In this document: piece by piece, positions 10,440 through 25,303 of the stretch
Numbering within the stretch: the first letter of the stretch is position 1
How the letters are laid out: every line of letters starts with the position of its first letter
Assembly (NCBI GenBank): GCA_029838215.1
Contig: JALGVI010000006.1
Coordinates: forward strand, 27,698 to 91,697
DNA: 64,000 nt
Origin: Candidatus Helarchaeota archaeon
Lineage (GTDB): Archaea > Asgardarchaeota > Lokiarchaeia > Helarchaeales > RDOG01
Direction: 5' to 3'
Made by a program: the position numbers and the translations under genes
Notes under the pieces: generated by a model
Database searches by the model: none
Seen by the model: the letters and a program-made list of their open reading frames with translations, nothing else
Told to the model about the DNA's origin: nothing

Positions 10440-12359
10440 TTAAGAAATATCTGCAGACGTCGGTGATAAGTCCTTAGCAATCCCGAGAAGGGCAATCAAC
10501 TTACCATTTTTATCATGGATTGGCTTTACAACAAGACTTGCCATGAATTTCTCACCATTTTTGCGAACAAGATTAAGAATTTCTTCAAATTTTCCTTTTT
10601 CTTTTATGTTTTTAAGAACCCGTGGAATGATTCCATTACGATCTTCTTGAGGGTGAAACATGGCAACTTCTTTACCAATAACTTCCTCGGATTTCCACCC
10701 GAAAATCTTTTCGCTCCCTTTATTGTATGTTAAAATCCTTCCTTTCATGTCGGCTGTATTTATAGATAAATCAACGGTCTCAAGGATTAATTCGTTAAGT
10801 TCGTGAATCCTTCGGAGTTCATCTTCAGCATTTTTCTGATCGGTAATATCTCTGACAAAGACGCCAGCAAGATCCTTCCCAAAATGAAAGCCCCTTGCTT
10901 CATAATGGCGTTTTTCTTTTTTGACATCAAGCGCGAAGGTGAAAACTTGCGGTTCTTTTGTTTCAAAAAGCGTCTTGATCTTTGAAATAGCGGTTTTTTT
11001 CAGATCTCCGGTCAAAAAGTCATCGATTTTACTACCGCGTAAATTTTCAGGTAGCGAGAATAATTGTTCAGGATCGCCTTCAAAATTAACAATTCTAAAA
11101 TCAGAAGAAATCAAGAAAAATAAATCGGGAGTTATTTCGAAAATTCTTCTAAACTTTTCTTCAGATTCAATTATTTTTTCTTCAGACCGTTTTCGTTCTG
11201 AAATGTCACGAATGATGGCTAAATTGGCAACATCACCATCCCATTCTATAAGCCCACCGCTGATTTCCACGTCAATTATTGTCCCATCCTTCCGGCGAAT
11301 TTTTGCCTCAATAAGATCAGGTATGTTTTTTCCTTTTATTCGATCCTCGTAGCGCTTCTTTAACTTATTTATATCTTCCTCAGTGGCGATGAAATCGGTA
11401 AATAGCCTTCCTTCAATATCCTCTTTTTGATAACCGAAGACTTCGTTTGTTTTCTTGTTAAAAAAAACGATTTTACCATTTTTTATGATTACAATCGTGT
11501 CATTCGAACGCTCTATTAATTTTCTATACTTCTCTTCGGATTTATATCGTTCATTCTCCAGCTTTTTACGAACTGATATGTCACGTATTATTGCCAAGTC
11601 AGCTGGACGCCCATTCCAATCCACGATCCCCGCGCTCACTTCAGCGTCCAAAAAACTTCCATCTTTTCGTTTGATTTTTATTTCGTAAAGCGATGGAACA
11701 CCCTTACTAGTAATGCGATCTTCATATATTTTCATGATTTTTTTAATTAGAGCATCACCTGCAAGGAATTCTTGAAAAGGCCTCCCTTGCATCTCTTCGC
11801 TTGAGTAGCCGAACATTTCAACTGCTTTTTTATTATTAAAAACGATGAAACCGTCTTGAATGATTATGATTGAATCATTTGAACGCTCGATTAAATTATT
11901 GAATTTTCGTTCAGATGTTTCTCTCTCTTTCCGAATGGCTTCTTCTAGCCTTTTCTTATCCGTGATATCTCTTGCAAAATGTGCAACAGCGATTACTTCA
12001 TTCTGGTTAAAAATGGGATATACTAAATAATTATACCAACGGTTATTCTTTGCATCGAGGTGTTCAACAGATACATGTCTTTTCTTCTCTAATGCGTCCT
12101 TAATTGGACACTCAGCACAAATAACGTCATTTCCGTGAAAGATAAGATGACAGGGCTTGCCAACAATGTCTTCATTTTCTCTCACGTTATGATACAAGCG
12201 AGCAAGACGATAGGTGGCTTTATTAGCCTTAATTATGTTTAAATTTACATCTTGAATGATGACAATATCGTTTATTGACTCAAAAAACATGTTTAACAGA
12301 AAGTTGATGTATTCGACTTTCAAAAGAAAGTCTGATTTATCGCGAAGCTCGTTAGGCAT
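10440..12359 (-). CDS. Multi-PAS domain protein without a recognisable output domain
   Basis: 639 aa. ~5 PAS-like units, each ending in I(I/V)RDI(S/T)xRK. The N-terminal unit has the insert CHLIFHGNDVICAECP. Confidence 0.8.
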   Translation of the reverse strand: MPNELRDKSDFLLKVEYINFLLNMFFESINDIVIIQDVNLNIIKANKATYRLARLYHNVRENEDIVGKPCHLIFHGNDVICAECPIKDALEKKRHVSVEHLDAKNNRWYNYLVYPIFNQNEVIAVAHFARDITDKKRLEEAIRKERETSERKFNNLIERSNDSIIIIQDGFIVFNNKKAVEMFGYSSEEMQGRPFQEFLAGDALIKKIMKIYEDRITSKGVPSLYEIKIKRKDGSFLDAEVSAGIVDWNGRPADLAIIRDISVRKKLENERYKSEEKYRKLIERSNDTIVIIKNGKIVFFNKKTNEVFGYQKEDIEGRLFTDFIATEEDINKLKKRYEDRIKGKNIPDLIEAKIRRKDGTIIDVEISGGLIEWDGDVANLAIIRDISERKRSEEKIIESEEKFRRIFEITPDLFFLISSDFRIVNFEGDPEQLFSLPENLRGSKIDDFLTGDLKKTAISKIKTLFETKEPQVFTFALDVKKEKRHYEARGFHFGKDLAGVFVRDITDQKNAEDELRRIHELNELILETVDLSINTADMKGRILTYNKGSEKIFGWKSEEVIGKEVAMFHPQEDRNGIIPRVLKNIKEKGKFEEILNLVRKNGEKFMASLVVKPIHDKNGKLIALLGIAKDLSPTSADIS

Positions 12360-12478
12360 TTTCCCCAGCCATCTATTTTAATATTTTTAATAAGGAAATC
12401 CGATCAAAAGCCCTTCCGCTTGAGACGAAATTATCCCGATTACTTCGTTTCTGACATATATCAGTAATTAGACTTATT

Positions 12479-14749
12479 TTAAATTCTTTTGGCAATACCG
12501 AGCAGAGCAATTAGTTTCTTATTCTTATCATGAATTGGCGTAACAACTAAATTCGCAAGTAAGGTTTCGCCATTTTTGCGCACGAGTCTAACGGCTTTTT
12601 CGAATTTACCTTTTTCTAAGGCATCTTTTATGATTTGAGGAACAAGGGTCTGGTGGTCTTCTTTAGGATGAAAAATTTTTATTGATTTACCGATTACTTC
12701 TTCGGATTTCCACCCGAATAACTTTTCGCTTCCCTTGTTATAAGCCAATAATTCTCCGTTTAAGTCGGAAATGTTTATGGGAAGATCGACGTTATCAAGA
12801 ATGAGCTGATTAAGTTCACTCGTTTTAGTTAACTCCTCTTCGATCTTGCGTTGTATTGTCAGATCCCGTATAAAAATACCGACTCTATCTTCAGAAAAGT
12901 AGAGGTATTGTGCTTTAAAATATCGCTGAATGCCTTCAATTGTGAGAAAATATTCCAGACTTTGGGGTTCTTTCGTGTTTAATGTTTTCCGAATACTCTC
13001 CAGACAGGTTGCTTTAAGATCATTTGGAAGAAGATCGATCATTTTCATGCTGAGAAATTCTTCGGGAGGAGCATAAGTTTTCTCAGTTGCACCCCAAAAA
13101 TCAAGAATTCTTGAATCACCAGAGACCAAGAAAAATAAGTCAGGTATTGCTTCGAGAATTGTTCGAAACCTTTCCTCGAAGTCCTTAATAGTTTTTTCTG
13201 CAAATTTACGTTCGGAAATGTCTCGAACGACTACGAGAGCAGCATATTTACCGTTCCACTCAAATAAACTTGTATTATATTCAACATCGATAATGGACCC
13301 GTCTTTTCGACGGATTTTTAACTCGGTAAGAGAAGGAATTTCCTTTCCCGCAATGAGATCATTGTACTGCTTGATAAGAGCGGGAATTCCTTTTTTTTCG
13401 GGAAAGAAAGATTTTAAATGAGTTCGCCTTAATTCTTCGTCAGCATAACCAAACATTTCATTTGTTTTACTATTGTTAAAGACCGTATAACCGTCTTGAA
13501 CTATGATGATTGCATCATTTGATCTATTAATTATGGAGCGATATTTTTCTTCAGACTCTTTCAGTTTTCGCTCTGTCAGCTTGCGTTCGGAAATGTCACG
13601 AATTATTACCAAGTCTGCTGGTTTTCCATCCCATTCGATCATTCCCCCACTAATTTCCACGTCGATAATCTGGTCTTTTTTCCCACGAATTTTTGCTTCA
13701 ACTACGGAAGGAAGGACCTTTCCGGACATTCGATCCAAGTAGCGCTGATAGAAAGACTTCGCTTCATTTGGATCAGGAATGAAATCCGTGAATGGACGTC
13801 CTTGAACGTCTTCTAATGAATAACCGAATGTATCTTGAGCCATTTTGTTATTATAGACAACGTTTCCATCTTGAATGACAATAATTGCGTCATTAGATCT
13901 CTCGATCAATGTCTGAAATTTCTCCATTGACTTGTGTCGTATTTCTTCCATCTTTTTCCGTTCTGAAATATCTCGAACAATAGCCAATCCTGCTGGTCTT
14001 CCATCCCATTCAATCATGGCAGCATTCATCTCAACATCCACGGTGGTGGCATCTTTTCGCTTAATCCTTACATTAAATAGGGATGGAAATGCTCCTTTTT
14101 CCAGTCGATCTTTGTATTGCTTGAAGATTGCCTTTGTTTCTTCTTTTCCATCGATAAAATCCTTAATTTGAAGATTCTTTATTTCATCAGAAGAGTATCC
14201 GAGGATTTTTGTTGCAACCTTATTGTGAAAAACAGCCCGTCCATCTTGAATGATCATTATCCCATCATTTGACCATTCAATGAGATTTCTATATTTCATC
14301 TCCAAGTGCCGCCTTTCTCGTTCAATTGATTCTTCATATTGCTTTTGTGCCGTGAGGTCTCTTACCACGCAGGCCATGGCAACGACTTTGTTACCATCAA
14401 AGATAGGGTAAACGAGATAATTGTACCAACGCTTGTACCTGGGATTATAAAATTCAACGGACGTATTTGTCTTTTTTTGGATGGAATTCGAAATCGGACA
14501 GTTTTCACATTCAGTTTTACGTCCATAAAAGACGAAATGACATTTTTTTCCTACAATATCTTCTGATACGTGTATGTGATTGTTTAATCGAGCCAATCTA
14601 TATGCCGCACGATTTCCTCGCATGATTCGAAAATTTAGGTCCATTAAAACCATTAAATCGCTTGCTGATTCAAAAAATAAATCTAAAAGGCTTTTAGAAT
14701 AATCTAAATGCTTTCGGAGTAACTCTCTATCGAGACCATCCTTACTCAT
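12479..14749 (-). CDS. Multi-PAS domain protein, tandem paralog of 10440..12359
   Basis: 756 aa. ~6 PAS-like units with VRDISERK/IRDISERK ends. N-terminal insert CHFVFYGRKTECENCP. Same N- and C-terminal architecture as its neighbour. Confidence 0.8.
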   Translation of the reverse strand: MSKDGLDRELLRKHLDYSKSLLDLFFESASDLMVLMDLNFRIMRGNRAAYRLARLNNHIHVSEDIVGKKCHFVFYGRKTECENCPISNSIQKKTNTSVEFYNPRYKRWYNYLVYPIFDGNKVVAMACVVRDLTAQKQYEESIERERRHLEMKYRNLIEWSNDGIMIIQDGRAVFHNKVATKILGYSSDEIKNLQIKDFIDGKEETKAIFKQYKDRLEKGAFPSLFNVRIKRKDATTVDVEMNAAMIEWDGRPAGLAIVRDISERKKMEEIRHKSMEKFQTLIERSNDAIIVIQDGNVVYNNKMAQDTFGYSLEDVQGRPFTDFIPDPNEAKSFYQRYLDRMSGKVLPSVVEAKIRGKKDQIIDVEISGGMIEWDGKPADLVIIRDISERKLTERKLKESEEKYRSIINRSNDAIIIVQDGYTVFNNSKTNEMFGYADEELRRTHLKSFFPEKKGIPALIKQYNDLIAGKEIPSLTELKIRRKDGSIIDVEYNTSLFEWNGKYAALVVVRDISERKFAEKTIKDFEERFRTILEAIPDLFFLVSGDSRILDFWGATEKTYAPPEEFLSMKMIDLLPNDLKATCLESIRKTLNTKEPQSLEYFLTIEGIQRYFKAQYLYFSEDRVGIFIRDLTIQRKIEEELTKTSELNQLILDNVDLPINISDLNGELLAYNKGSEKLFGWKSEEVIGKSIKIFHPKEDHQTLVPQIIKDALEKGKFEKAVRLVRKNGETLLANLVVTPIHDKNKKLIALLGIAKRI

Positions 14750-15019: not shown

Positions 15020-15817
15020 TCATTCCATGAAATCAAAAATCCTTTTTGGAGGAGAATAATTCAGGATGATCATTTCTTCTCGCATGTTATCTCCTTTTTT
15101 ACAGGTCACGCTGTAATTGACTTCGGTAGGAATCACGTGGAAACCCGAGAATTTGTTGACTAAGTCTCGGTTTAAAGTGAGAATGAATTTTCCTTTTATA
15201 CCCCGTAATACTTTAACCAACTCATCATAATTGAACTTGATCCCATAGGAATAATCGGTGTCATAGGGTGGATCAAGAAAAAAGAGCGTGGTAGGACGAT
15301 CAAATCTCTTCATTAGGTCCTTATAGTCAAGATTCTCAATAATGGCGTTCTGAAGCCGCTTGTGAGCTTTTTTTACCAAATCGAGTCCCGTGAACAAGCT
15401 ACTTTTTGCTTTTTTATCGGGTGTGGATGCAAATGGAGAATTACACCTTCCTTCTTTATTAAATCGGAACAAACCACCATAACTGCATTTGATTATGTAA
15501 TAAAGCCGAAATGCTTTTTCAATGTCATCCAATTCGTTCCAATTGCTCTCCCGATATTCCATGAAAAGATCTCGACTCACCAGAGCATATTCAAACTTTT
15601 TCAGGAAGATGCCGAGGTCATCCTTTATGACACGGAAGAAGGTGATAAGCAATTGATTGTTATCGTTAATGACTTCGATTCGTGAAGGTTTTTTATGGAA
15701 GAAAACGCTTCCGCCACCAAAAAAAGCCTCAACATAACACTGATGGGATGGAAAGAGCGAAACAATTTTCTGTCGTAAAAGACGCTTGGAACCGACCCAT
15801 TTAATTGGACTGTTCAT
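15020..15817 (-). CDS. Dam-like N6-adenine DNA methyltransferase (D12 class)
   Basis: IKWVGSKRLL, EAFFGGGSVFF (motif I), INDNNQLLITFF, FFLDPPYD (motif IV). Confidence 0.85.
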   Translation of the reverse strand: MNSPIKWVGSKRLLRQKIVSLFPSHQCYVEAFFGGGSVFFHKKPSRIEVINDNNQLLITFFRVIKDDLGIFLKKFEYALVSRDLFMEYRESNWNELDDIEKAFRLYYIIKCSYGGLFRFNKEGRCNSPFASTPDKKAKSSLFTGLDLVKKAHKRLQNAIIENLDYKDLMKRFDRPTTLFFLDPPYDTDYSYGIKFNYDELVKVLRGIKGKFILTLNRDLVNKFSGFHVIPTEVNYSVTCKKGDNMREEMIILNYSPPKRIFDFME

Positions 15818-16713
15818 TGTTTCGAACCCTTCTCCATGAATGAAATGATATCCCTTTGCCTGTTTTTCTCTCGGGATTCATCACGCAAGTCACGTATCAT
15901 CACCCTTGCTTCGGCAATGTTTTGGTCTATCGTGGGCTTGCACGCGGGATTGATTTCAAAACCGATGAAATTACGGCGATTTTTAACGCAAGCAACAGCC
16001 GTCGTTCCGTTGCCCATAAATGGATCCAAAACCACTGCTTTTTTTCCATTTTCCATCGGTCTTGAAGAATATTTGATGAATTTTTCAACGAGTTCTTCTG
16101 GAAGTTTTGTTGAGTTCTTTATTTTTCCGCGATTATATGGTCGTTTGATTTCCCAAACATTCTCCATGTAATTCAACCAATATTCATCCATGGCTGATAC
16201 AGGAGACCCGACATTCTGAGAAGAGAGATTCATCACGTCTTCGGGATAATGATCTATTTTATTGAAATAATACTTTTTCGGGTTTTTCACGAGAAATAAC
16301 ACGTGATAATGACTGGATACGAACTTTCGTTTAGTAAAAACACCAAACTGGTACTTCCAAATGATATGATTCACCGTAATGAAACCCGCTTTCGCTATAG
16401 CATTCAAAATTTCCCGTAATTTGGTCCAGCCAGAAATGAGATAAAATGAACCTGTATTCTTTAAAACTCGATAAACCTCCTTTATCCATCCATGAGAAAA
16501 CTCTTCATAATCTTGCTTTATTTCAGAATAACCGGGAATGACAAGACTCGCCTTTCTATTATATTGAGACCCCATTTTATCAAAATTAATTCCAAAAGGA
16601 GGATCGGCGATCACGAGATCTATTGATTCATCGGGAATGCGCTCTGCCATGCCTTGAATGCAGTCTTCATAATAAATTTTGTCGAGTTCTAACAAATTAT
16701 TCGAAAACTCCAC
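15814..16713 (-). CDS. Beta-class N4/N6 DNA methyltransferase
   Basis: Motif IV IADPPFG is N-terminal and motif I VLDPFMGNGTTAVAC is C-terminal (beta order). GTG start. ATGA overlap with the downstream Dam-like gene. Confidence 0.85.
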   Translation of the reverse strand: MEFSNNLLELDKIYYEDCIQGMAERIPDESIDLVIADPPFGINFDKMGSQYNRKASLVIPGYSEIKQDYEEFSHGWIKEVYRVLKNTGSFYLISGWTKLREILNAIAKAGFITVNHIIWKYQFGVFTKRKFVSSHYHVLFLVKNPKKYYFNKIDHYPEDVMNLSSQNVGSPVSAMDEYWLNYMENVWEIKRPYNRGKIKNSTKLPEELVEKFIKYSSRPMENGKKAVVLDPFMGNGTTAVACVKNRRNFIGFEINPACKPTIDQNIAEARVMIRDLRDESREKNRQRDIISFMEKGSKQ

Positions 16714-16799
16714 GTCTAACTTTTGAACTAACGTTAATTATAAGAATTATTTGAATAATTGGAATATTAAAGGATTTTTTCAAATTCATTTGAATTAAA

Positions 16800-18311
16800 G
16801 TGGTTGAAATGGGTTCTAAAGTTGAACGCGTGATTCAGTTAATATTGGATGACGTGCGAGCTGACCAATTTTTCCAATTACTTGATGATGGAAAGTTGCC
16901 AAAAATTCGAAAATATCTTGGAGACGGCATCCGTGGTAATTGCACGAGCATTTATCCTGCCATTACCGTTCCAGCGCGCTTGACATTATTAACAGGGGCA
17001 TATCCTGATGCCTATTCTGTCCCGGGAATGCACTGGTATGAACGTCGCACGAATAAAATTCACAATCATGCTTCCCTGCACAGCTGGGACATCCCGGAAA
17101 TGTTAGGAGATCGTGTGAAAACGCTTTACGAACAGGTAAGCGGAAATACGGCAGATTTATTTACTTTAATGCACCGCGGCGTAGATTATAACTTCCCTAC
17201 GAAGGCACAAACCGTGGGGATATATATTTGGCATTTTTACATCTTGAGAACCAGTGTCGTGAAAGCAAATGAATTCACGGTCAATAAAATTCTTGACATG
17301 TTCACGAAACCGAGAAAATATTTTGGAAATTCAGACCCACCCAGATTTATTTCGGCATGGTTTTTTTCTTCAGACGACCTGATGCATGATCACGGATATG
17401 ATTCCCGAGAGTACATTTCCAATCTGATCGATATTGACAGACAAATAGGGGTTCTAATCGAAGGAAACAATAAGCATGACGGATTAAAACAACAGGGATA
17501 TTTAGATGATACGGTTTTCATTCTTTCCTCTGATCACGGTAACTATAAAGCCAAGCGTCAGGTTATACTTGAGCCATACTTTCAACAACACGGCTTGATC
17601 CCAATAAAGTCGGGTAAGAAAAATAGAGGCAACTTCGATGTTGCAATGGGAGCGGTTGGTCAGTTTTATTTTAAGGGAAAAGATCCGAACAGTCGTCCGA
17701 CTCAAGCAGAGCTGGAAAAATATGGACCAAATGAACTAAACCTATTGAAAATCCTGCGCGGTATTGATGGAATGAAACTACTCTATTATCGAGATGATGA
17801 GAATACTCCAAAAAAAGGAATGGTCCACGTAGAATATTTGGAAGATGACACGATCATTGAAGGAACAATTGAATATGAAGGAGAGAAAACACGTTTAACG
17901 TTACCCGGAAAAGATTTCTTCGGGTATTCCGATGACAACATGGGTGCAAAAATGCTGGATGGAAAGTTTCACACGCTTGATGAGTGGATTCAACACACGC
18001 ACCACTTGGATTTCCCAGCAGTTGCAGATTATGTCGTTCGACTTTTCAAGAATCCAAATTCGTGTGATGTATTATGTTCTACATTAGGGGAAACCATTTT
18101 TAACTACGAACATGGAAAAACACAAAATTCGCACGTGTATGGACATGATATTGCAACACATACAGGGATGACAACACCTCTCCTCATTTCAGGCTCTAAC
18201 ATCACCACGAGAACCCTTGACCATGCAAAGAGTTCAGATTTGGTTCCGACCATTGTAAAATTATTGAATGGAAACCTGGCACCTTCCGTGGTTGGTAGAA
18301 GCCTTGTCTGA
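16800..18311 (+). CDS. Alkaline-phosphatase-superfamily phosphoesterase (type I phosphodiesterase/NPP-like; same clan as PglZ)
   Basis: LILDDVRADQF, YPAITVPARLTLLTGAYP (Thr nucleophile context), MHDHGYDS, ILSSDHGN, VYGHDIATHTG. GTG at 16800 or ATG at 16809. Confidence 0.75.
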   Translation: MVEMGSKVERVIQLILDDVRADQFFQLLDDGKLPKIRKYLGDGIRGNCTSIYPAITVPARLTLLTGAYPDAYSVPGMHWYERRTNKIHNHASLHSWDIPEMLGDRVKTLYEQVSGNTADLFTLMHRGVDYNFPTKAQTVGIYIWHFYILRTSVVKANEFTVNKILDMFTKPRKYFGNSDPPRFISAWFFSSDDLMHDHGYDSREYISNLIDIDRQIGVLIEGNNKHDGLKQQGYLDDTVFILSSDHGNYKAKRQVILEPYFQQHGLIPIKSGKKNRGNFDVAMGAVGQFYFKGKDPNSRPTQAELEKYGPNELNLLKILRGIDGMKLLYYRDDENTPKKGMVHVEYLEDDTIIEGTIEYEGEKTRLTLPGKDFFGYSDDNMGAKMLDGKFHTLDEWIQHTHHLDFPAVADYVVRLFKNPNSCDVLCSTLGETIFNYEHGKTQNSHVYGHDIATHTGMTTPLLISGSNITTRTLDHAKSSDLVPTIVKLLNGNLAPSVVGRSLV

Positions 18312-20598
18312 TCTAGAGAGGGATCTTGAGCAATTATCCGAAATCATATCAATGATTGCACGCGAGAACATCAACAATCCAGCAATAGACAGAAAACAAC
18401 GACACTTCGTAACTTGGAAGAACTGTTATTTCACGGTTCATTCTTCAAACATACCTGATATCGAATTAATTGATTTTTTTTCAGCAGAATCAGCACGAGT
18501 ATTGTTAGCATACCTATTATTCATTAAAAAAAATGCAGAATTATTTCACGTCGAGTGGAGTGCATTCAAGTTTAACACGAATTCCTTTCGAGCTATGGCA
18601 GATAGAGTTAAAAAACAATTACTTCCCAATTTTATCGAGTTGACCTTTTATTTTTGGTCATGGCTCAACCCCCATGAGGAAAACTCGATTCTAGATGATT
18701 GTGAACGGCAACTTTCTTCAGTTCTCTTGCGAATTTTTTCATCATATTCTGATGAGGAGATAAATAAAATCTTCGAAACTCCAGTAGGGCGTTTACCCAG
18801 TCAAAAACAAAAGGACAAAGGAGAATTTTACACGGAAATGGGTATCGTGGATTTCATACTTGATGAAATTGGGTACACGACACGACTGCACGATAAAAGA
18901 ATTTTAGACCCTGCTTGTGGTACCGGAAATTTCATTGTAAAAGCACTACAAAGATATATTAACGACTCGTTGCAAGTAGTTCAAGCGAGATCTTATCTGC
19001 AAATCTTGGAGAATCTCTTGAATGTTCCACACGTGGTTGGAATGGACATTGATCTTTTTGCATGTTGCATGAGTAAATTACGTTTTCTTCACGTGATAAA
19101 CGATTTAGTCCTTGAGGCAAAAAAACGAAACGATTCTTTTGTTATCAAAAGCATTCCAATCTACTTTACCGATTCATTAATTCCTGATGATTTTGAAGAA
19201 GATGGTTTAAAAAAAACAGAAGATTATTTGATTTTGGAATCCTTGAAATCCACGCAAGCATGGGATTTTGTCGTGGGAAATCCCCCTTACATTCGTGCCA
19301 CGCGTTTTAGAAGCTCGAAAAGAAGCAAATATCGAAAAATTTTTCCTAACATCGCAAGTGGGGCATTCGACATCTCCATTTTATTTCTTTTTAAAGGAGT
19401 GGAGTGGTTGAAAGAAAAAGGTAAACTCGGATTCATCATCACGAATAAATTCTTCATCAATAAATACGCAGAACCATTACGGGCTCACTTATTACGCGAA
19501 ACAAACATCCTTACAATTGTTGATTTAACAAGTTCAGATGTTTTCGAGAACAGGTATGTATCCACGACAATTTTTATCGCAGAAAAAACTCGGCGTCCAA
19601 TGAACGAAGTGCGAATAATACGTGTTAAAAATAAATCCCCAGAAGCAATTCACGAGTTGATGATGCTCAGGACGAAAAAATTTCCATTTTCATCGAATGA
19701 GTTACAATGTCACGTTAAGGAACAAAGTGAATGGGAACGAATCCCCGGCAATGTCTTTCAAATTTTTAATGATTATAATTTGAAAAACATCATTAGAAAA
19801 ATACAGGGAGATGGAACTTTAAAATTGAAACAAATCGGTAAAATTCACGGAGGAATAATGGGGTTTAATTATCATTCATTACGTCCTTTAGTAACAGATG
19901 AGAAATTGGGAAAAAATCAGTTAAAACTCCTAACACCGGGTCTCATCCGACATTTTCGCGTGCTCTGGGGAAAAAAATCCATGAAATTATTTAGACGAAA
20001 AGAAACGGGCGATGAACCTGTTAAGTATAAAACTCCTTTTCTTAGAATCGATTCAAGCTTGATTTCAGATAATACGGCTAGCGTGTTTAGAAAGAGAAAG
20101 ATTCTCATTAGAAGTGTTGCCCGAGAGTTGACGAGCTTTCTCGATGAAAAAGGTGAATATGCTTATGCCGTGGCAATATTTGCCTTGCATGACCTGAAAA
20201 TCCCGGTTCAAACACGAGATTTATTAACAGAAAAAAACGATGACGACAACATAAATGGTTTCCAACATTACTGCGTTGCATTATTAAATTCAAGCCTTCT
20301 AGATTTTTATCATAAGTTTAATCATGCCCTGGGGCGCATTCCCAAAGGCTCTTATAGGTATACAAAAGAGATGCTCCAAGATTTGCCGATAAAAATTCCC
20401 GCAAACCAATCAGAGCTTGAGATCTACAACAAGATCAGGAAACTTTGTCAGGAAATTCACGAATCAAATCAAGATTTAGAAAAAGTTGAAGGAGACATTA
20501 ATTTTAACAAAAAAGAATTAGACAATCTAATTAAAATGATGTACGGAATAACAGCAGACGAATGGAATGGTATCGAATCGTTTCTAAAGATGAAATAA
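18268..20598 (+). CDS. Gamma-class N6-adenine DNA methyltransferase, Eco57I/PglX-like, with a C-terminal target-recognition region
   Basis: GEFYTEMGIVDFILDEIGY, ILDPACGTGNFIV (motif I), VVGMDIDLFA, FVVGNPPYIRA (motif IV), KGKLGFIITNKFF. ATG 18268 overlaps the upstream gene by 44 nt; the alternative ATG 18352 leaves a 40-nt gap. No nuclease motif seen in the first ~190 aa. Confidence 0.85.
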   Translation: METWHLPWLVEALSDLERDLEQLSEIISMIARENINNPAIDRKQRHFVTWKNCYFTVHSSNIPDIELIDFFSAESARVLLAYLLFIKKNAELFHVEWSAFKFNTNSFRAMADRVKKQLLPNFIELTFYFWSWLNPHEENSILDDCERQLSSVLLRIFSSYSDEEINKIFETPVGRLPSQKQKDKGEFYTEMGIVDFILDEIGYTTRLHDKRILDPACGTGNFIVKALQRYINDSLQVVQARSYLQILENLLNVPHVVGMDIDLFACCMSKLRFLHVINDLVLEAKKRNDSFVIKSIPIYFTDSLIPDDFEEDGLKKTEDYLILESLKSTQAWDFVVGNPPYIRATRFRSSKRSKYRKIFPNIASGAFDISILFLFKGVEWLKEKGKLGFIITNKFFINKYAEPLRAHLLRETNILTIVDLTSSDVFENRYVSTTIFIAEKTRRPMNEVRIIRVKNKSPEAIHELMMLRTKKFPFSSNELQCHVKEQSEWERIPGNVFQIFNDYNLKNIIRKIQGDGTLKLKQIGKIHGGIMGFNYHSLRPLVTDEKLGKNQLKLLTPGLIRHFRVLWGKKSMKLFRRKETGDEPVKYKTPFLRIDSSLISDNTASVFRKRKILIRSVARELTSFLDEKGEYAYAVAIFALHDLKIPVQTRDLLTEKNDDDNINGFQHYCVALLNSSLLDFYHKFNHALGRIPKGSYRYTKEMLQDLPIKIPANQSELEIYNKIRKLCQEIHESNQDLEKVEGDINFNKKELDNLIKMMYGITADEWNGIESFLKMK

Positions 20599-20629
20599 AA
20601 AGACCGTTCCTTTTTCAATTAAAAATGAA

Positions 20630-20926
20630 CTAATCATATTTAATTTGATCATAAAATTCCTTGCAAAATTCCAAGACCTCTGGAATCGGTGCAATCCTGC
20701 CGGACTTTAAACGGCGAATGATCCAGCGAAAACTCGGATGTTCCATTATCTTCAGGTCCTGTCCGAGCTTGGCTAATTTATCGATGCTAATTCGGTTCAA
20801 GTCTTTCACGGTCTCTTTTGGAGTTGCTGGCAATATTTTTTTCCTTTGTTCTCTTTCCTTTCTTTTTCGAGCTTGTTCGATCCTTTTTCTTTCCCGTTCT
20901 TCAAGGATTTTTTTAAAATTTTCCAT
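20630..20926 (-). CDS. Hypothetical 98-aa protein with a basic K/R/E-rich N-terminus
   Basis: ORF preceded by GGAGG 7 nt upstream. Its ATG shares one base with the TGA of the upstream ORF (TGATG). Confidence 0.5.
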   Translation of the reverse strand: MENFKKILEERERKRIEQARKRKEREQRKKILPATPKETVKDLNRISIDKLAKLGQDLKIMEHPSFRWIIRRLKSGRIAPIPEVLEFCKEFYDQIKYD

Positions 20927-21387
20927 CAGGAAGCCTCCAGAACTTTTGTTGCTATTGCATGAGCATTATTAATTAAGTCTTCCAGAATTTCGTTCTTCAA
21001 GATCTCTTCGATTTTCTTGTTAAAAGTTGAAATTCGTTGAGTTTTAAATAACTCGAGATACATGTCATAAAACAAGAGAAAAGCCTGTGAAATCGTCTTG
21101 ATATCCCCCATGAATGTTTTCTTTTCTTGTTTTTCCAAGATATCCTGAGCTTTATTAGCCAAAATTCTTTTTACCGTGGAAGGAAGCTCGGGATACTGCG
21201 TTATTTCTAAGTCGATTTGGAATTTTTTTGCCAATTGCTTGAGAGGTTCCAAATAATCTTCTCTATCTAAAATATATTGCCGGTTCTTTATCTTAATCAC
21301 GTCGAATTTCTTCTGTTGTCCCAAAAAATTGGAGCGATCCTTGACAGACATGCCTTCTGGATAATTTATTTTTATCAAGTAATCCAA
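20926..21387 (-). CDS. Hypothetical 153-aa protein
   Basis: TTG start with GGAGGA 7 nt upstream; translationally coupled to the 98-aa ORF. No motif recognised. Confidence 0.55.
   Translation of the reverse strand: MDYLIKINYPEGMSVKDRSNFLGQQKKFDVIKIKNRQYILDREDYLEPLKQLAKKFQIDLEITQYPELPSTVKRILANKAQDILEKQEKKTFMGDIKTISQAFLLFYDMYLELFKTQRISTFNKKIEEILKNEILEDLINNAHAIATKVLEAS
20934..20938 (-). promoter_or_regulatory. Shine-Dalgarno-like GGAGG for the 98-aa ORF
   Basis: Plus-strand cctcc at 20934-20938, 7 nt upstream of ATG (20926-20924). Confidence 0.5.
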
Positions 21388-21394
21388 ACGGATT

Positions 21395-21399
21395 CCTCC
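21395..21399 (-). promoter_or_regulatory. Shine-Dalgarno-like GGAGG for the 153-aa ORF
   Basis: Plus-strand cctcc at 21395-21399, 7 nt upstream of TTG (21387-21385). Confidence 0.5.
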
Positions 21400-21658
21400 A
21401 TTTACTTCCCATTTAAATCTTGTTTATGAGCCATTTATATTTATAATTAGCGGTTTATGTTCTATTTACTTTTCCTTTATTTTTCATTTATCTTATTTAA
21501 AAGGAGGAAATCCTGCAATTGATCCAAAAACAACAGCATTTTCAAGGAATTACATGTAATGATCTTGAACCAAATTAAGACTTATTATTGAATGATACCG
21601 AGCCATCACCAAGATATTACGTGCCTGATCCGACTGAAACTAAAAAGAAGATATTTTG

Positions 21659-22468
21659 TTAAAGAAATTGAGTTAGGGATTTTGCATCATTCGACTTCTC
21701 TTTAGGGAGGAAGGGAAATATTTCGGAATTAAAACGAGCCTTTTTCTTGATTATTGATTCGTATTCCTTGTTTATTTCGAATCCTATTACATTTCTACCC
21801 AATCGTCGGCATGCAAGGATGGTACCACCACTCCCACTAAAAATGTCCCCTACCCAATCACAAGGATCAGATGAGATCTTTATGATTTTTTCGAGCATGA
21901 CAATGGGTAATTGACAGGGATGCCCCTTAATTCTGTCGGGGTCATTTCCACGATTGTATTTTGGCCAATACCACACGTCATTTTCATATTTTTCACCCTT
22001 TCGTTTTGTATTTGGGTTCGAGTATTGTGGATAAAATTTGTAATTCTTCTTGTCCTTCACGAGAAAGAGAATGTGATAATGACTCGTGACATATTTTTTC
22101 TTGGTAAACACGCCCCAGCTGAAATGCCAAATGATATGATTGAGCAGCGTAAAATTTGTTTTTTTTACGGCGTTTAGGATTTCCCCAATTCTTGTCCAAC
22201 CGCTAATCACGTATAAAGAACCGTCAGGAGTCAAGGCATCAAAACACCGTGAAATCCACTTATAGGAAAAAATCTCATATTCGTCGGCGGTGAATTTATC
22301 ATCGTATAAGATATAATCAGAAGCACCATATTCATGACTGCTCTTGTCAAACTCCAGACCAAAAGGAGGGTCTGCAATCATGAGATGGAATTTTTCCTTG
22401 TACTTCGGCAACAAATCCATGATGTCGCCAATGATGAGTTCATAATGGGGTTTTTTTGGTTCACTCAT
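21659..22468 (-). CDS. Beta-class N4/N6 DNA methyltransferase (paralog of 15814..16713)
   Basis: MIADPPFG (motif IV), ISGWT, NHIIW, GVFTKKKYVTSHYHILFLVK, DIFSGSGGTILAC (motif I), IGFEIN. The same blocks occur in the other beta-class MTase. Confidence 0.85.
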   Translation of the reverse strand: MSEPKKPHYELIIGDIMDLLPKYKEKFHLMIADPPFGLEFDKSSHEYGASDYILYDDKFTADEYEIFSYKWISRCFDALTPDGSLYVISGWTRIGEILNAVKKTNFTLLNHIIWHFSWGVFTKKKYVTSHYHILFLVKDKKNYKFYPQYSNPNTKRKGEKYENDVWYWPKYNRGNDPDRIKGHPCQLPIVMLEKIIKISSDPCDWVGDIFSGSGGTILACRRLGRNVIGFEINKEYESIIKKKARFNSEIFPFLPKEKSNDAKSLTQFL

Positions 22469-22474
22469 TTAAAA

Positions 22475-22949
22475 TCAGGTTTTTTTCTTTTTGGACTTTT
22501 TCTTTTTCTTTGTTTTTTTTGCAGTCTTTGATTTTTTGGCTTTTTTAGTTTTTTTCGCTTTTTTGGCCTTCTTCTTCTTTTTTGGTTTTACCACTTTTTC
22601 TTCCTTTTCGGGCTCTTCCGGCGTTTCTTCTTCCGCGGGCAATTCTTCTTTGGCGGGTTTTTTCGCCTTTTTCACTTTTTTCTTTTTCTTCTTGGCTTTT
22701 TTCGTTCGGGCTCTTCCGGCGTTTCTTCTTCCGCGGGCAATTCTTCTTTGGCGGGTTTTTTCGCTTTTTTCACTTTTTTCTTTTTCTTCTTGGCCTTTTT
22801 CGCCTTTTTGGCTTTCTTCTTCTTTTTTGGTTTTGCCACTTTTTCTTCCTTTTCGGGCTCTTCCGGCGTTTCTTCTTCCGCGGGCAATTCTTCTTTGGCG
22901 GGTTTTTTCGCCTTTTTCACTTTTTTCTTTTTCTTCTTGGCTTTTTTCG
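22475..22949 (-). CDS. Lysine-rich repeat tail; can join ORF 22917..23813 only through two -1 frame changes (otherwise a separate ORF or non-coding)
   Basis: In the appropriate frames it reads KKAKKKKKKVKKAKKPAKEELPAEEETPEEPE three times, then a KKAKK-type tail. The frame ends at 22475, 6 nt before the ATG of the MTase gene. Confidence 0.35.
22696..22702 (-). other. Second A_AAA_AAG heptamer, in phase with the -1 frame entered at site 1 (candidate slippery site 2)
   Basis: The identical 36-nt junction recurs 245 nt downstream. The stop in that frame is at 22672-74. Confidence 0.4.
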
Positions 22950-23813
22950 TTCAACAGGTGATAATTCTTGTATTTTAACTTCGGTGGCGTCTTCGAGCGT
23001 GATTTCAACGGGTTTTCGTTCAGATGGAGGTGCTTTCGTTTCATCCACGACTGCTTTTGATCCTGCTTGCCGCTCTTCGATCATCGGGCGTTCCACGAGA
23101 GGCATCACGATTTGTGGTTCTAAAGAAGGTTGTTCTTCAGAGCTTGCTTCCAATTCTGCGATGCGTTCTTTAAATTCTTTATCAATTCGTTCACTCAAGT
23201 ACTCATTTACTTCCAAAAGAGTTGACTCGTCCACGTTTTCAATTTCAAATAAAAAGTCCCGCTCCACCTCGAGTTTCACTTCAAACAAGGTCTTGGTTTT
23301 TAATAAATCAGAATAAAGCAATTGGATGACGTGATCGATGACGTATTGAGCCCTGTTTTCTTTCGTTAATTTATATCGATTTAATATGAGATGCATTACC
23401 TTTCCCTGCTTCAAGAATACCCAATTATTCTTAACGCCAATCTCGGGTGGCTCTACACCAATCAAGCGGCATTTTTGCCGAATATCTTCCAATAGTTCTT
23501 TAGAAATAAAATCAAACCACTTATTCTCTTCAGGAAGAAATAGCTTGCTATCACGTTTAAAGAAGGGCTTTCGGATTATTTTTTTAGGGAAAAGTAAATC
23601 AATCAGTTCCATGCCAAAATAGTGAACCTGCAATTCTTCGCTTAATTTCGTGGATACGGCATTAAATTTATCAAGTAATTCTTTTTTTCGCAATTCGTAT
23701 CGGTGAAGTATCTCTAATTCTTTTCTAAAAACACTCTCTTGAATATCGGTTAATCCGCGTGCTTGCATTTCCCTTAAACTATTGATAAATTCGTGATATT
23801 TATCCTCGATCAT
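22917..23813 (-). CDS. Hypothetical 298-aa protein (N-terminal domain of unknown function, acidic linker, ends ...VERKKPRRKRKK)
   Basis: ATG preceded by GGTGGA 4 nt upstream; 36-nt gap to the upstream Toprim-like gene. No catalytic motif recognised. Confidence 0.6.
   Translation of the reverse strand: MIEDKYHEFINSLREMQARGLTDIQESVFRKELEILHRYELRKKELLDKFNAVSTKLSEELQVHYFGMELIDLLFPKKIIRKPFFKRDSKLFLPEENKWFDFISKELLEDIRQKCRLIGVEPPEIGVKNNWVFLKQGKVMHLILNRYKLTKENRAQYVIDHVIQLLYSDLLKTKTLFEVKLEVERDFLFEIENVDESTLLEVNEYLSERIDKEFKERIAELEASSEEQPSLEPQIVMPLVERPMIEERQAGSKAVVDETKAPPSERKPVEITLEDATEVKIQELSPVERKKPRRKRKK
22941..22947 (-). other. A_AAA_AAG heptamer in phase with ORF 22917..23813 (candidate -1 slippery site 1)
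   Basis: Minus strand GAA CGA AAA AAG CCA AGA AGA AAA AGA AAA AAG TGA. Codons occupy 22947-49, 22944-46 and 22941-43. The 0-frame stop is at 22917-19. Confidence 0.4.
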
Positions 23814-23849
23814 CTTTCCACCAGAAGGATTTTAGGGATAAGGACATAA

Positions 23850-24320
23850 TTAAGAATGAAAATTGATAAAGATTTTCTTCAATCTTTTCAATTGCATGCT
23901 ATTTTTCAATGTTTTAAGGAGTTTTTCGATTTTATTTGGATGAACGTTTATGATAGAATGCAATCTCATTGGATCATTTGGTAACTTATATTCATTTAAG
24001 TTAATTCTTGATTTATAACATGCATCTATAATCCATTCTTCTAATCTGGGACAAATTTGAACGATGAGGTTATTTTTCTTGGGTTCTTGGAATAATTTTA
24101 AATTGAACTCGTTATATTCTTTAAATAACTGAAATTTTTCATTAAAACTTTTTGGAATGGGTTTACCGGGATCTTCATCAATCATTCCTACGTTATTTTC
24201 ATCTTTGATTAATCGCTTTATCACGCCAGATTTGTTACCTGAATGCCTAATTTTTATCGGATATCCCCTAATCAAGATTTTAACTAATTTTTCGTCGGCT
24301 TTACATTCTACGAAAATCAA
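23850..24320 (-). CDS. Small Toprim-like protein (OLD/DUF4435/RloB-like)
   Basis: 156 aa. N-terminal MIFVECKADEKLV (hhhEGxxD/E-type Toprim glutamate strand) and VGMIDEDPG (DxD-like). ATGA overlap with the upstream ATPase gene. Confidence 0.45.
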   Translation of the reverse strand: MIFVECKADEKLVKILIRGYPIKIRHSGNKSGVIKRLIKDENNVGMIDEDPGKPIPKSFNEKFQLFKEYNEFNLKLFQEPKKNNLIVQICPRLEEWIIDACYKSRINLNEYKLPNDPMRLHSIINVHPNKIEKLLKTLKNSMQLKRLKKIFINFHS

Positions 24321-25303
24321 TGGTCAGGCTCCAAAAAACGATCTATTTCAAAGAAAATATCTGCTCCTGCATCCAACAATTCTCCCAGTTCAGATTTCTT
24401 CAGGATTTTAACCTTTGTTTGATAGTCTTCATAATACGTTAGCAGGATATTAAAATCTTTAATGTTCGATTTCTCAATAATGGAAAGTAGAAAATAAGGA
24501 TTATGCGTGGTGATGAAATATTGATTATTTCTTTCTTGTAAAGCAATTTTTTCGGCTAAAAACTTGCAATAATAAGGAAATGAATTAGAAGCGGGTTCTT
24601 CAAAGACGATGGTAGAGATTTGATTCGACAAAATAGCCACTAAATAAAAAATGATTCTTTGAAGAGTGTCTGAAAGTAAATTATAAGGATATGAATACAA
24701 TTTATTGTCTTGCATTTTCACGATTTCATAAATTTGATCGGGTAGTTTTAACATTAATTTTAGACCAAATTTTTCAAAAATCGGATATATTTCATCTTGT
24801 AGTGCTTTTCTTGAAGACAAAACTTTAAACAAATTCTCCCCAAATGGGGGATATAAAAAATCTAATTGTTTTCCAGCATATTTTATGGTAGGCTTGAATC
24901 TATAGAATCTTACCTTAAAGACATCATTGAAACTTTTATTTTTAGGGGGAATTTCATCAATGTTACAAACAAAATCATGTTTTTTTTGCCCATGAATTGA
25001 ATAGAAACCCCGATATTGATCGTCCTTAAAAAATAAGGAAAAGAAACCACGATTTGTACGTATTTCTATTGGATAATCTATCAGTTGATCGAAAAAAATT
25101 TGGCTTAAACTACTCATTCTGACGAATGAATTCATTGAGCCATATTTTGGAAATGATAACAAGCTTATCGCTTCTAATATATTAGATTTTCCTGTATTGG
25201 GTTCTCCTATCAATACATTAATCTTTTTACAATTAAACTTGATATTTTTTATTGACTTAAATTTTGAAATTTCTACACGATCTATCAAATCTACTCTGCT
25301 CAC
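24317..25303 (-). CDS. ABC/SMC-like ATPase of the AAA_15/AAA_21 type (OLD, AriA, PtuA-like)
   Basis: VLIGEPNTGKSNILEAI (Walker A), LLSDTLQRIIFYL (signature-like), TIVFEEPASNSFP (Walker B), FITTHNPYFL (H-loop). GTG start. Confidence 0.8.
   Translation of the reverse strand: MSRVDLIDRVEISKFKSIKNIKFNCKKINVLIGEPNTGKSNILEAISLLSFPKYGSMNSFVRMSSLSQIFFDQLIDYPIEIRTNRGFFSLFFKDDQYRGFYSIHGQKKHDFVCNIDEIPPKNKSFNDVFKVRFYRFKPTIKYAGKQLDFLYPPFGENLFKVLSSRKALQDEIYPIFEKFGLKLMLKLPDQIYEIVKMQDNKLYSYPYNLLSDTLQRIIFYLVAILSNQISTIVFEEPASNSFPYYCKFLAEKIALQERNNQYFITTHNPYFLLSIIEKSNIKDFNILLTYYEDYQTKVKILKKSELGELLDAGADIFFEIDRFLEPDH

Follow-up and report, generated by a model that had tools for sequence, protein, structure and literature searches.

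Assembly-dependent frame breaks in the Lys-rich repeat tail of a Helarchaeota gene, a probable misassembly that resembles a double -1 frameshift

Transcriptional slippage, as in Thermus dnaX and IS elements, makes use of runs of about nine or more A or T residues, a threshold that comes from outside the organism considered here. Programmed -1 ribosomal frameshifting (-1 PRF) is defined by a slippery heptamer with a structure 5-9 nt downstream and, usually, by phylogenetic conservation (PMC8211752). The high shiftiness of the heptamer A_AAA_AAG in E. coli is attributed to the sole tRNA-Lys (UUU anticodon), which reads both AAA and AAG; in organisms with a separate AAG-reading tRNA-Lys, the pairing with AAG is tight (PMC5009743). 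In Archaea, -1 PRF exists in fucA1, close strains carrying full-length genes (PMC1616953, PMC8211752), and it follows from this precedent that full-length relatives alone do not exclude PRF. If true, the double frameshift proposed in a sequence-only reading of a Candidatus Helarchaeota contig would be the second cellular case of -1 PRF in Archaea and the first in an Asgard lineage. The frameshift signal vanishes in an independent assembly of the same genome, and comparison of the assembled sequences suggests that the apparent double frameshift is most likely not a real feature.

The gene lies in the window, as we call the whole 64-kb stretch of DNA that was analysed, and all its parts are on the minus strand. 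Its N-terminal domain (22950..23813) comprises codons 1-288, up to ...SPVE, and has the same sequence in every sister assembly. As had been claimed, the ORF as assembled (23813..22917) is 298 aa long and ends in ERKKPRRKRKK-stop; its last codons are ...GTT GAA CGA AAA AAG CCA AGA AGA AAA AGA AAA AAG TGA, which gives the C-terminal text ...SPVERKKPRRKRKK-TGA. The domain meets the tail at junction 1 (22941..22950; GAA|CGAAAAAAG, broken between 22950 and 22949), inside which the heptamer AAAAAAG (22947-22941) is in frame 0. Copy 1 of the core module Ea (98 nt, 22852..22949) follows, an exact match in all four assemblies, whose Lys frame encodes (A/T)KKAKKKKKKVKKAKKPAKEELPAEEETPEEPE. The TGA terminating the ORF as assembled (22917..22919) overlaps a GTG of this Lys frame (GTGA). 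Next come the 49-nt linker L (KEEKVAKPKKKKKAKKAKK; 22803..22851), complete in every assembly, and the core module Eb (98 nt, 22705..22802), which is present in a single copy and matches Ea except at 2 positions; all assemblies retain its upstream junction, AAAAAGG|CGAAAAAGGCC, undamaged and in frame. At junction 2 (22696..22705; GAA|CGAAAAAAG, broken between 22705 and 22704), the heptamer (22702-22696) is in the -1 frame. Copy 2 of Ea (98 nt, 22607..22704), identical to copy 1, holds a TGA at 22674-22672. The terminal Lys-rich module T (22475..22606; 129 nt, KEEKVVKPKKKKKAKKAKKTKKAKKSKTAKKTKKKKKSKKKKT, plus the TGA at 22477-22475) is the same in all assemblies and forms the C-terminus of a 380-aa sister protein, P0001.

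The remaining descriptive claims also agree with our reanalysis. The junction GAA|CGAAAAAAGCC recurs 245 nt downstream of its first copy, the repeat spacings are 98 and 147 nt, and each heptamer is followed by a stop (TGA at 22919-22917 and 22674-22672), directly preceded in each case by a second in-phase A_AAA_AAG. In a three-frame translation of 23100-22400, the -1 frame past the heptamer at 22947-22941 reads KKAKKKKKKVKKAKKPAKEELPAEEETPEEPE... as far as the TGA at 22674-22672, and past the heptamer at 22702-22696 the next -1 frame is open until the TGA at 22477-22475. Two -1 shifts thus give the proposed 446 codons (291+82+73), ending 6 nt before the ATG of the next gene at 22468.

Three qualifications reduce the evidential weight of this arrangement of in-phase heptamers and stops, which is low. 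Stops are rare in all forward frames of the tail (1-3 per frame) because just 17 of its 475 nt are T. The second site repeats the first module exactly and therefore provides no independent evidence. Moreover, any 3n+1 deletion that ends at the C of GCG AAA AAA GCC brings A_AAA_AAG into phase automatically: an incoming frame that is off by one base is read as CGA AAA AAG CCA, which necessarily puts the heptamer in phase and turns the GTG-A eight codons further on into a TGA.

This tail is the only sizeable tandem repeat within the 64-kb window. Being A-rich and T-poor, it yields long spurious ORFs on both strands of 22475-23316, namely one of 189 aa in the third forward frame (22475..23044) and antisense ones of 156, 244 and 76 aa that consist of F/L/S runs; the 439-aa sister protein P0004 follows the third forward frame for about 130 residues. 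A sub-threshold Rfam match to the C/D-box sRNA sR43 at 22990-23048 on the minus strand (16.2 bits, where the gathering score is 45; E = 0.29) falls inside the coding region and is most likely due to chance.

A protein search with the 298-aa product against 5.8 billion proteins returned one cluster (90%) of four members, comprising P0001 (380 aa), the window's own product (298 aa), P0003 (310 aa) and P0004 (439 aa); the named members come from sister JGI samples, their annotation being that of Candidatus Helarchaeota MAG proteins. The comparison was made between assembled contigs, of which L001 measures 2.2 kb, L002/L007 is a 75.8-kb contig and L003/L006/L008 a 98.5-kb contig. Around the tail, the window and L002 show 0 mismatches over 6.9 kb, and the window and L008 have no SNP over about 21 kb outside the two junctions. 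These 21 kb are the extent of the sister comparison, and exact-product look-ups with four window ORFs gave no record. For three of the four, the misses are probably explained by other start-codon calls. One gene is called as 776 aa in the window (18268-20598) and as 764 aa in L008 (14757-17051), in different records.

The tails can be split exactly into five modules, P1 (49 nt), Ea (98), L (49), Eb (98) and T (129). The L001 tail is P1+Ea+T (276 nt) and is in frame; that of L003 is P1[1-44]+Ea+L+Eb+L[1-7]+Ea+T (523 nt), that of L002 is P1[1-36]+Ea+L+Eb+L[1-16]+Ea+T (524 nt), and that of the window is Ea+L+Eb+Ea+T (472 nt). All differences are losses inside the 49-nt linker directly before Ea, the sole module present twice. 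At junctions 1 and 2, respectively, the linker lacks 49 and 49 nt in the window, 13 and 33 nt in L002, and 5 and 42 nt in L003, with 0 missing in L001. In other words, the P1 linker is kept at junction 1 to 49/49 in L001, 44/49 in L003, 36/49 in L002 and 0/49 in the window, and at junction 2 L002 keeps 16 nt and L003 7 nt, both in frame, and the window none. The right breakpoint is constant in 6/6 lesions, falling at the C of CGAAAAAAGCC, and the left breakpoints lie at P1 positions 0, 36 and 44 and at L positions 0, 7 and 16. Microhomology at the six joins amounts to 0-3 nt; as assembled, the window's own joins are CCTGTTGAA|CGAAAAAAGCC and GAGCCCGAA|CGAAAAAAGCC.

Among five assemblies there are thus three distinct multi-core structures, every pair of which differs at both junctions, and one in-frame structure. 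The window needs two -1 shifts. L001 needs none, P0001 being encoded in a single frame (...SPVEEEPEKIEKPKKKKAKKAKKAKKKKKKVKKAKKPAKEELPAEEETPEEPEKEEKVVKPKKKKK...KKKKT). L002 requires one -1 shift at the same in-phase heptamer, its second junction being in frame, and in L003, where the heptamer is out of phase, a +1/-2 shift would be required and the gene is annotated as 439 aa in the third frame (EKSQEEKEK...). The 310-aa variant, which corresponds to junction 1 of L002, is found on two contigs, of 75,771 and 92,934 nt; this recurrence was seen for junction 1. An exact-pattern scan of metagenome_contigs for the core gave no match, the sister samples lying outside that collection. The four GenBank/IMG gene models of 298, 310, 380 and 439 aa cannot all be correct.

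When the N-terminal 291 aa were searched exhaustively with HMMER against 1.84 billion representative proteins, the only matches were P0001 and one distant relative, P0005 (373 aa; E = 2e-5; 28% identity over residues 2-290), from GCA_016840985.1 (L005 226-1347). The C-terminus of P0005, ...GKPKKIKKKTKSKKKKTKKKKKATKTESKDEESKPELVIEEKELEETEPKAKKTKKKTKSKKKKTKKKKK, is a tail of Lys block, acidic spacer and Lys block encoded in one frame. Since P0001 and P0005 share a domain fused in frame to a Lys tail, the conserved architecture of the family is an N-terminal domain plus an in-frame basic tail, and the family does not rely on frameshifting to express it. The proposal that the Lys-rich frame is a meaningful coding frame of the upstream gene is therefore upheld, both P0001 (380 aa) and P0005 (373 aa) having it in frame. 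The ortholog comparison did not show the heptamer and stop arrangement to be kept, P0005 being a single ORF. No match to the N-terminal domain was found in Pfam, PHROGs, PADLOC or PDB (profile search), which leaves it as an orphan family, and scans of genome_contigs (GTDB species representatives) and viral_contigs gave no relatives. A tail-peptide search for read-level (Logan) fragments produced 8000 low-complexity candidates and 0 significant ones.

The AF2 single-sequence model of P0001, at a pLDDT of 47.6, is of low confidence and too poor for a fold search; it shows no secondary structure past about residue 225, and the tail is predicted to be disordered. Lys/Ala/Pro-rich basic tails occur in nucleoid and chromatin proteins such as histone H1 and HupB/Hlp. 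Judged by composition alone, a tail in which polycationic and acidic stretches alternate may serve to bind or condense nucleic acid. With two members among 1.84 billion representatives, the combination of an orphan domain and a Lys-block/acidic-spacer tail is a minor curiosity. We also considered the gene as a restriction partner of the adjacent methyltransferase, which is unsupported, P0005 having no methyltransferase neighbour. The neighbour of P0005 is a 692-aa protein with weak Adap_comp_sub and CLIPPER matches.

The tail gene belongs to a DNA-modification and defence island that spans about 15.0-25.3 kb of the window (15020-25303). The island includes a D12-class N6-adenine methyltransferase (15020-15817), an N4/N6 methyltransferase (15814-16713), a phosphodiesterase-family protein (16800-18311) and a 776-aa Eco57I/MmeI-type (PglX-like) methyltransferase with a TaqI_C specificity domain (18268-20598), the phosphodiesterase gene lying directly upstream of and overlapping the latter. 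It also includes two small orphan proteins, a 269-aa type II methyltransferase (21659-22468) and the tail gene. The 269-aa enzyme, encoded on the minus strand directly downstream of the tail, is a type II N4/N6 DNA methyltransferase (Pfam PF01555, E = 4.6e-44; PADLOC MTase_II). An ATPase pair occupies 23850-25303 on the minus strand and consists of a 328-aa AAA_21 ATPase and a 156-aa orphan protein overlapping by 4 nt. PADLOC matches of the ATPase are to HEC-01A, AriA, AbiLi, GajA and Old (E = 1e-10 to 1e-17), and its 156-aa partner had no match in any library searched; together they could be an uncharacterised ATPase-plus-effector defence pair. Given that relatives of the tail gene are absent from the GTDB species representatives, the island may be strain-specific. 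Elsewhere in the window, at 10440-14749, two adjacent multi-PAS-domain paralogues of 639 and 756 aa share a 161-nt direct repeat of 71% identity (10642-10802 and 12657-12817).

The assemblies disagree at these junctions only, and one assembly (L001) and one distant homologue have the tail in frame. We consider it probable, with a probability of roughly 0.6, that the two frame breaks are an assembly-specific misreconstruction of one ORF that carries an in-frame 147-nt repeat. An assembly error in a repeat had been listed in the sequence-only reading as an alternative and is now favoured, the lesions being assembly-specific and L001 being in frame. That reading had also named as contrary evidence a different repeat structure giving one continuous frame, and L001 has such a structure, at the level of an independent assembly. 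We infer that the cause was assembly instead of mutation and that the true core copy number is three. The true gene would be a single ORF with an orphan N-terminal domain of about 288 aa and, in the same frame, a disordered polycationic tail of 147-nt (49-codon) repeats, each a Lys block plus an acidic Pro-rich spacer, that probably binds nucleic acid.

Errors would then have arisen at both entries into Ea, the only module that occurs twice. In the reconstructed in-frame three-core tail, the longest exact repeat is 133 nt and is centred on Ea, a length that exceeds the k-mer sizes commonly used by assemblers; with three cores and full linkers, Ea would thus lie inside a repeat that short-read k-mers cannot resolve. 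Each sister assembly would have lost a different amount of linker before Ea. In the window, 49 nt would have been lost at both entries, displacing the frame by one nucleotide each time, and the phase of A_AAA_AAG and the stop at the 8th codon would be automatic by-products of this displacement. Assembly error is favoured because the lesions occur only where the duplicated module is entered, single-copy Eb always having an intact entry, and because the three multi-core structures differ pairwise at both junctions in genomes that are otherwise indistinguishable. It is favoured as well because the joins lack the homology expected of slippage or recombination among long in-register repeats, and because the three-core reconstruction demands resolution of a 133-nt repeat exactly at Ea. 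As expected of an artefact, the discrepancies are confined to the multi-copy segment and are different in each independent assembly.

The main weakness of this explanation is that no specific assembler mechanism was derived for homology-free joins at a fixed right-hand base. By reasoning, unitig boundaries in a de Bruijn graph of the three-core model were rejected as the cause of the fixed breakpoint, as they miss that C, and neither short-overlap nor local-alignment gap closing reproduces all six joins. A pure de Bruijn path, moreover, needs read-supported k-mers across each junction. At 2.2 kb, L001 is itself a short contig, whose single core could be a collapsed repeat.

These points bear on a serious rival explanation, which we regard as possible although less likely, that the junctions are real and belong to an unstable tract in which different in-frame and out-of-frame indel alleles dominate different samples. 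Taken as a whole with the same doubt, this explanation would make the window gene a truncated one (298 aa), its tail remnant being non-coding or separately translated, and would imply either that the gene is becoming a pseudogene or that its Lys-rich tail is switched on and off as at a contingency locus. Homology-free joins would be hard for a de Bruijn assembler to produce unless present in the reads, and the 310-aa form, recorded as it is on two contigs, is more readily reconciled with a real allele than with a random artefact. Four structures are found in an otherwise identical background; such differences among genomes that are clonal elsewhere (0 SNPs over 7-21 kb beyond the junctions) are a mark of phase variation, and the location in a DNA-modification and defence island is one where variable genes are common. 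Against real alleles, two independent lesions would be needed in each of three lineages without a SNP in 7-21 kb, and the six lesions would all have to end at one base on the right, although they start at arbitrary positions on the left and have microhomology of 0-3 nt. In addition, slipped-strand variation alters whole repeat units, whereas the losses here are of 5, 13, 33, 42 and 49 nt; these differences of 5-49 nt fall in a 49-nt linker and are set against a 147-nt unit. No reverse transcriptase or recombinase is encoded nearby to supply a directed mechanism.

Frameshifting itself, whether -1 ribosomal (programmed, or adventitious but functional) or by transcriptional slippage, would have to be used twice and would give a 446-aa protein beside products of 298 and 373 aa; we consider it very improbable. 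The X_XXY_YYZ pattern is present, A_AAA_AAG being in phase at both junctions with a second in-phase copy directly before each stop, and the -1 frame after each site encodes a tail like that of the homologue. Junction 1 of L002 carries the same in-phase heptamer, and the archaeal precedent of fucA1, with full-length genes in close strains, speaks for such a reading too (PMC1616953, PMC8211752). It predicts the trans-frame peptides ...VERKKAKKKKKKV... and ...SPVERKKAKKKKKKVKK.... The proposal of programmed double -1 frameshifting or transcriptional slippage nevertheless did not survive the comparison, in which assemblies without a SNP over 21 kb need 0, 1, 2 or +1/-2 shifts; clonal assemblies disagree on the arrangement itself, L001 having no shift, L002 one, and L003 a +1/-2 shift at an out-of-phase heptamer. 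A 3n+1 deletion ending at that C would account automatically for both phase and stop.

An RNA fold of 128 nt (22947-22820; MFE -18.8 kcal/mol, z = -2.76) shows no stimulatory stem 5-9 nt past the heptamer. The local helix closest to the heptamer, a 4-bp GGCG/CGCC hairpin, starts 29 nt downstream of it, other pairs being scattered in groups of 2-4 bp, and the Rfam search found no frameshift element; both absences count against frameshifting. Among the sister assemblies and P0005, neither the shift site nor the two-frame arrangement is conserved, and the distant homologue P0005, in one frame, argues in the same direction. The shiftiness of this heptamer in E. coli depends, furthermore, on a sole tRNA-Lys (PMC5009743). 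No tRNA genes occur within the 64-kb window. As for transcriptional slippage, both junctions have only an A6 run (CGAAAAAAG), which falls short of the A9 type and is no long homopolymer.

The pieces might alternatively be made separately, by termination-reinitiation at the GTGA overlaps (22920-22917 and 22675-22672), with the frame breaks real. ORFs of the Lys frame with GTG starts begin exactly at the stops, among them an 82-aa ORF in the window (22672..22920), and a gene caller annotated a 153-aa ORF at the equivalent position in L002. In the in-frame protein, however, this GTG is a plain Val codon of KKKKKKVKK, exact look-ups of the separately called tail ORFs gave no recorded protein, and such a scheme inherits every argument against real junctions, so that we rate it as extremely improbable. 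Improbable as well, if less so than either frameshifting or reinitiation, is a combination in which the junctions are real and form a Helarchaeota defence-island contingency locus, with non-homologous losses at a fixed base and a compensatory low-level -1 slippage that partly restores the full-length protein.

A misassembled in-frame repeat is thus the reading that we prefer, and its lesson is that an apparent slippery-site frameshift in a Lys-rich, A-rich tandem repeat of a MAG calls for a comparison of assemblies or reads before any interpretation.

With E. coli dnaX, the locus shares an identical A_AAA_AAG heptamer in phase and a zero-frame stop soon after it. The dnaX site is conserved and is flanked by an SD-like stimulator upstream and a stem-loop at a set spacing downstream; the present site is not conserved and lacks a structure at 5-9 nt. 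The dnaX shift leads to a shorter product, whereas here it must lengthen the protein, and do so twice; the shiftiness in dnaX also rests on a single tRNA-Lys (PMC5009743). Sulfolobus solfataricus fucA1 (A-AAA-AAT) is likewise a split archaeal gene with full-length relatives and an A-rich heptamer in the ORF overlap (PMC1616953, PMC8211752). The fucA1 alleles, however, differ by one A in the same run, and a stem-loop and rare codons are conserved (PMC8211752), while the variants described here differ by losses of 5-49 nt with arbitrary left breakpoints, and two shifts are needed. Frameshifting in fucA1 has, besides, been demonstrated experimentally.

In composition, the encoded tail seems similar to the C-terminal domain of histone H1 and the tails of mycobacterial HupB/Hlp, with KKAKK/PAKK-type blocks and predicted disorder. 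It differs from them in lacking sequence homology and in the strongly acidic EEETPEEPE spacers that alternate with the blocks, and the N-terminal domain, unlike those proteins, lies outside known families. Phase-variable contingency loci resemble the locus in that an ORF containing repeats differs in frame from one otherwise identical genome to the next and is surrounded by restriction-modification and defence genes; they vary, however, by whole units of usually 1-7 nt, whereas the unit here is 147 nt and the differences are not multiples of it. Misassembly or collapse of intragenic tandem repeats in short-read metagenome assemblies differs from what is seen here, at the level of contigs, in that the joins share no homology of k-mer length and all start at the same base. 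It is resembled in that the discrepancies fall in the module present twice and vary between assemblies of the same clonal population, with identical flanks and one collapsed, single-core version that is in frame.
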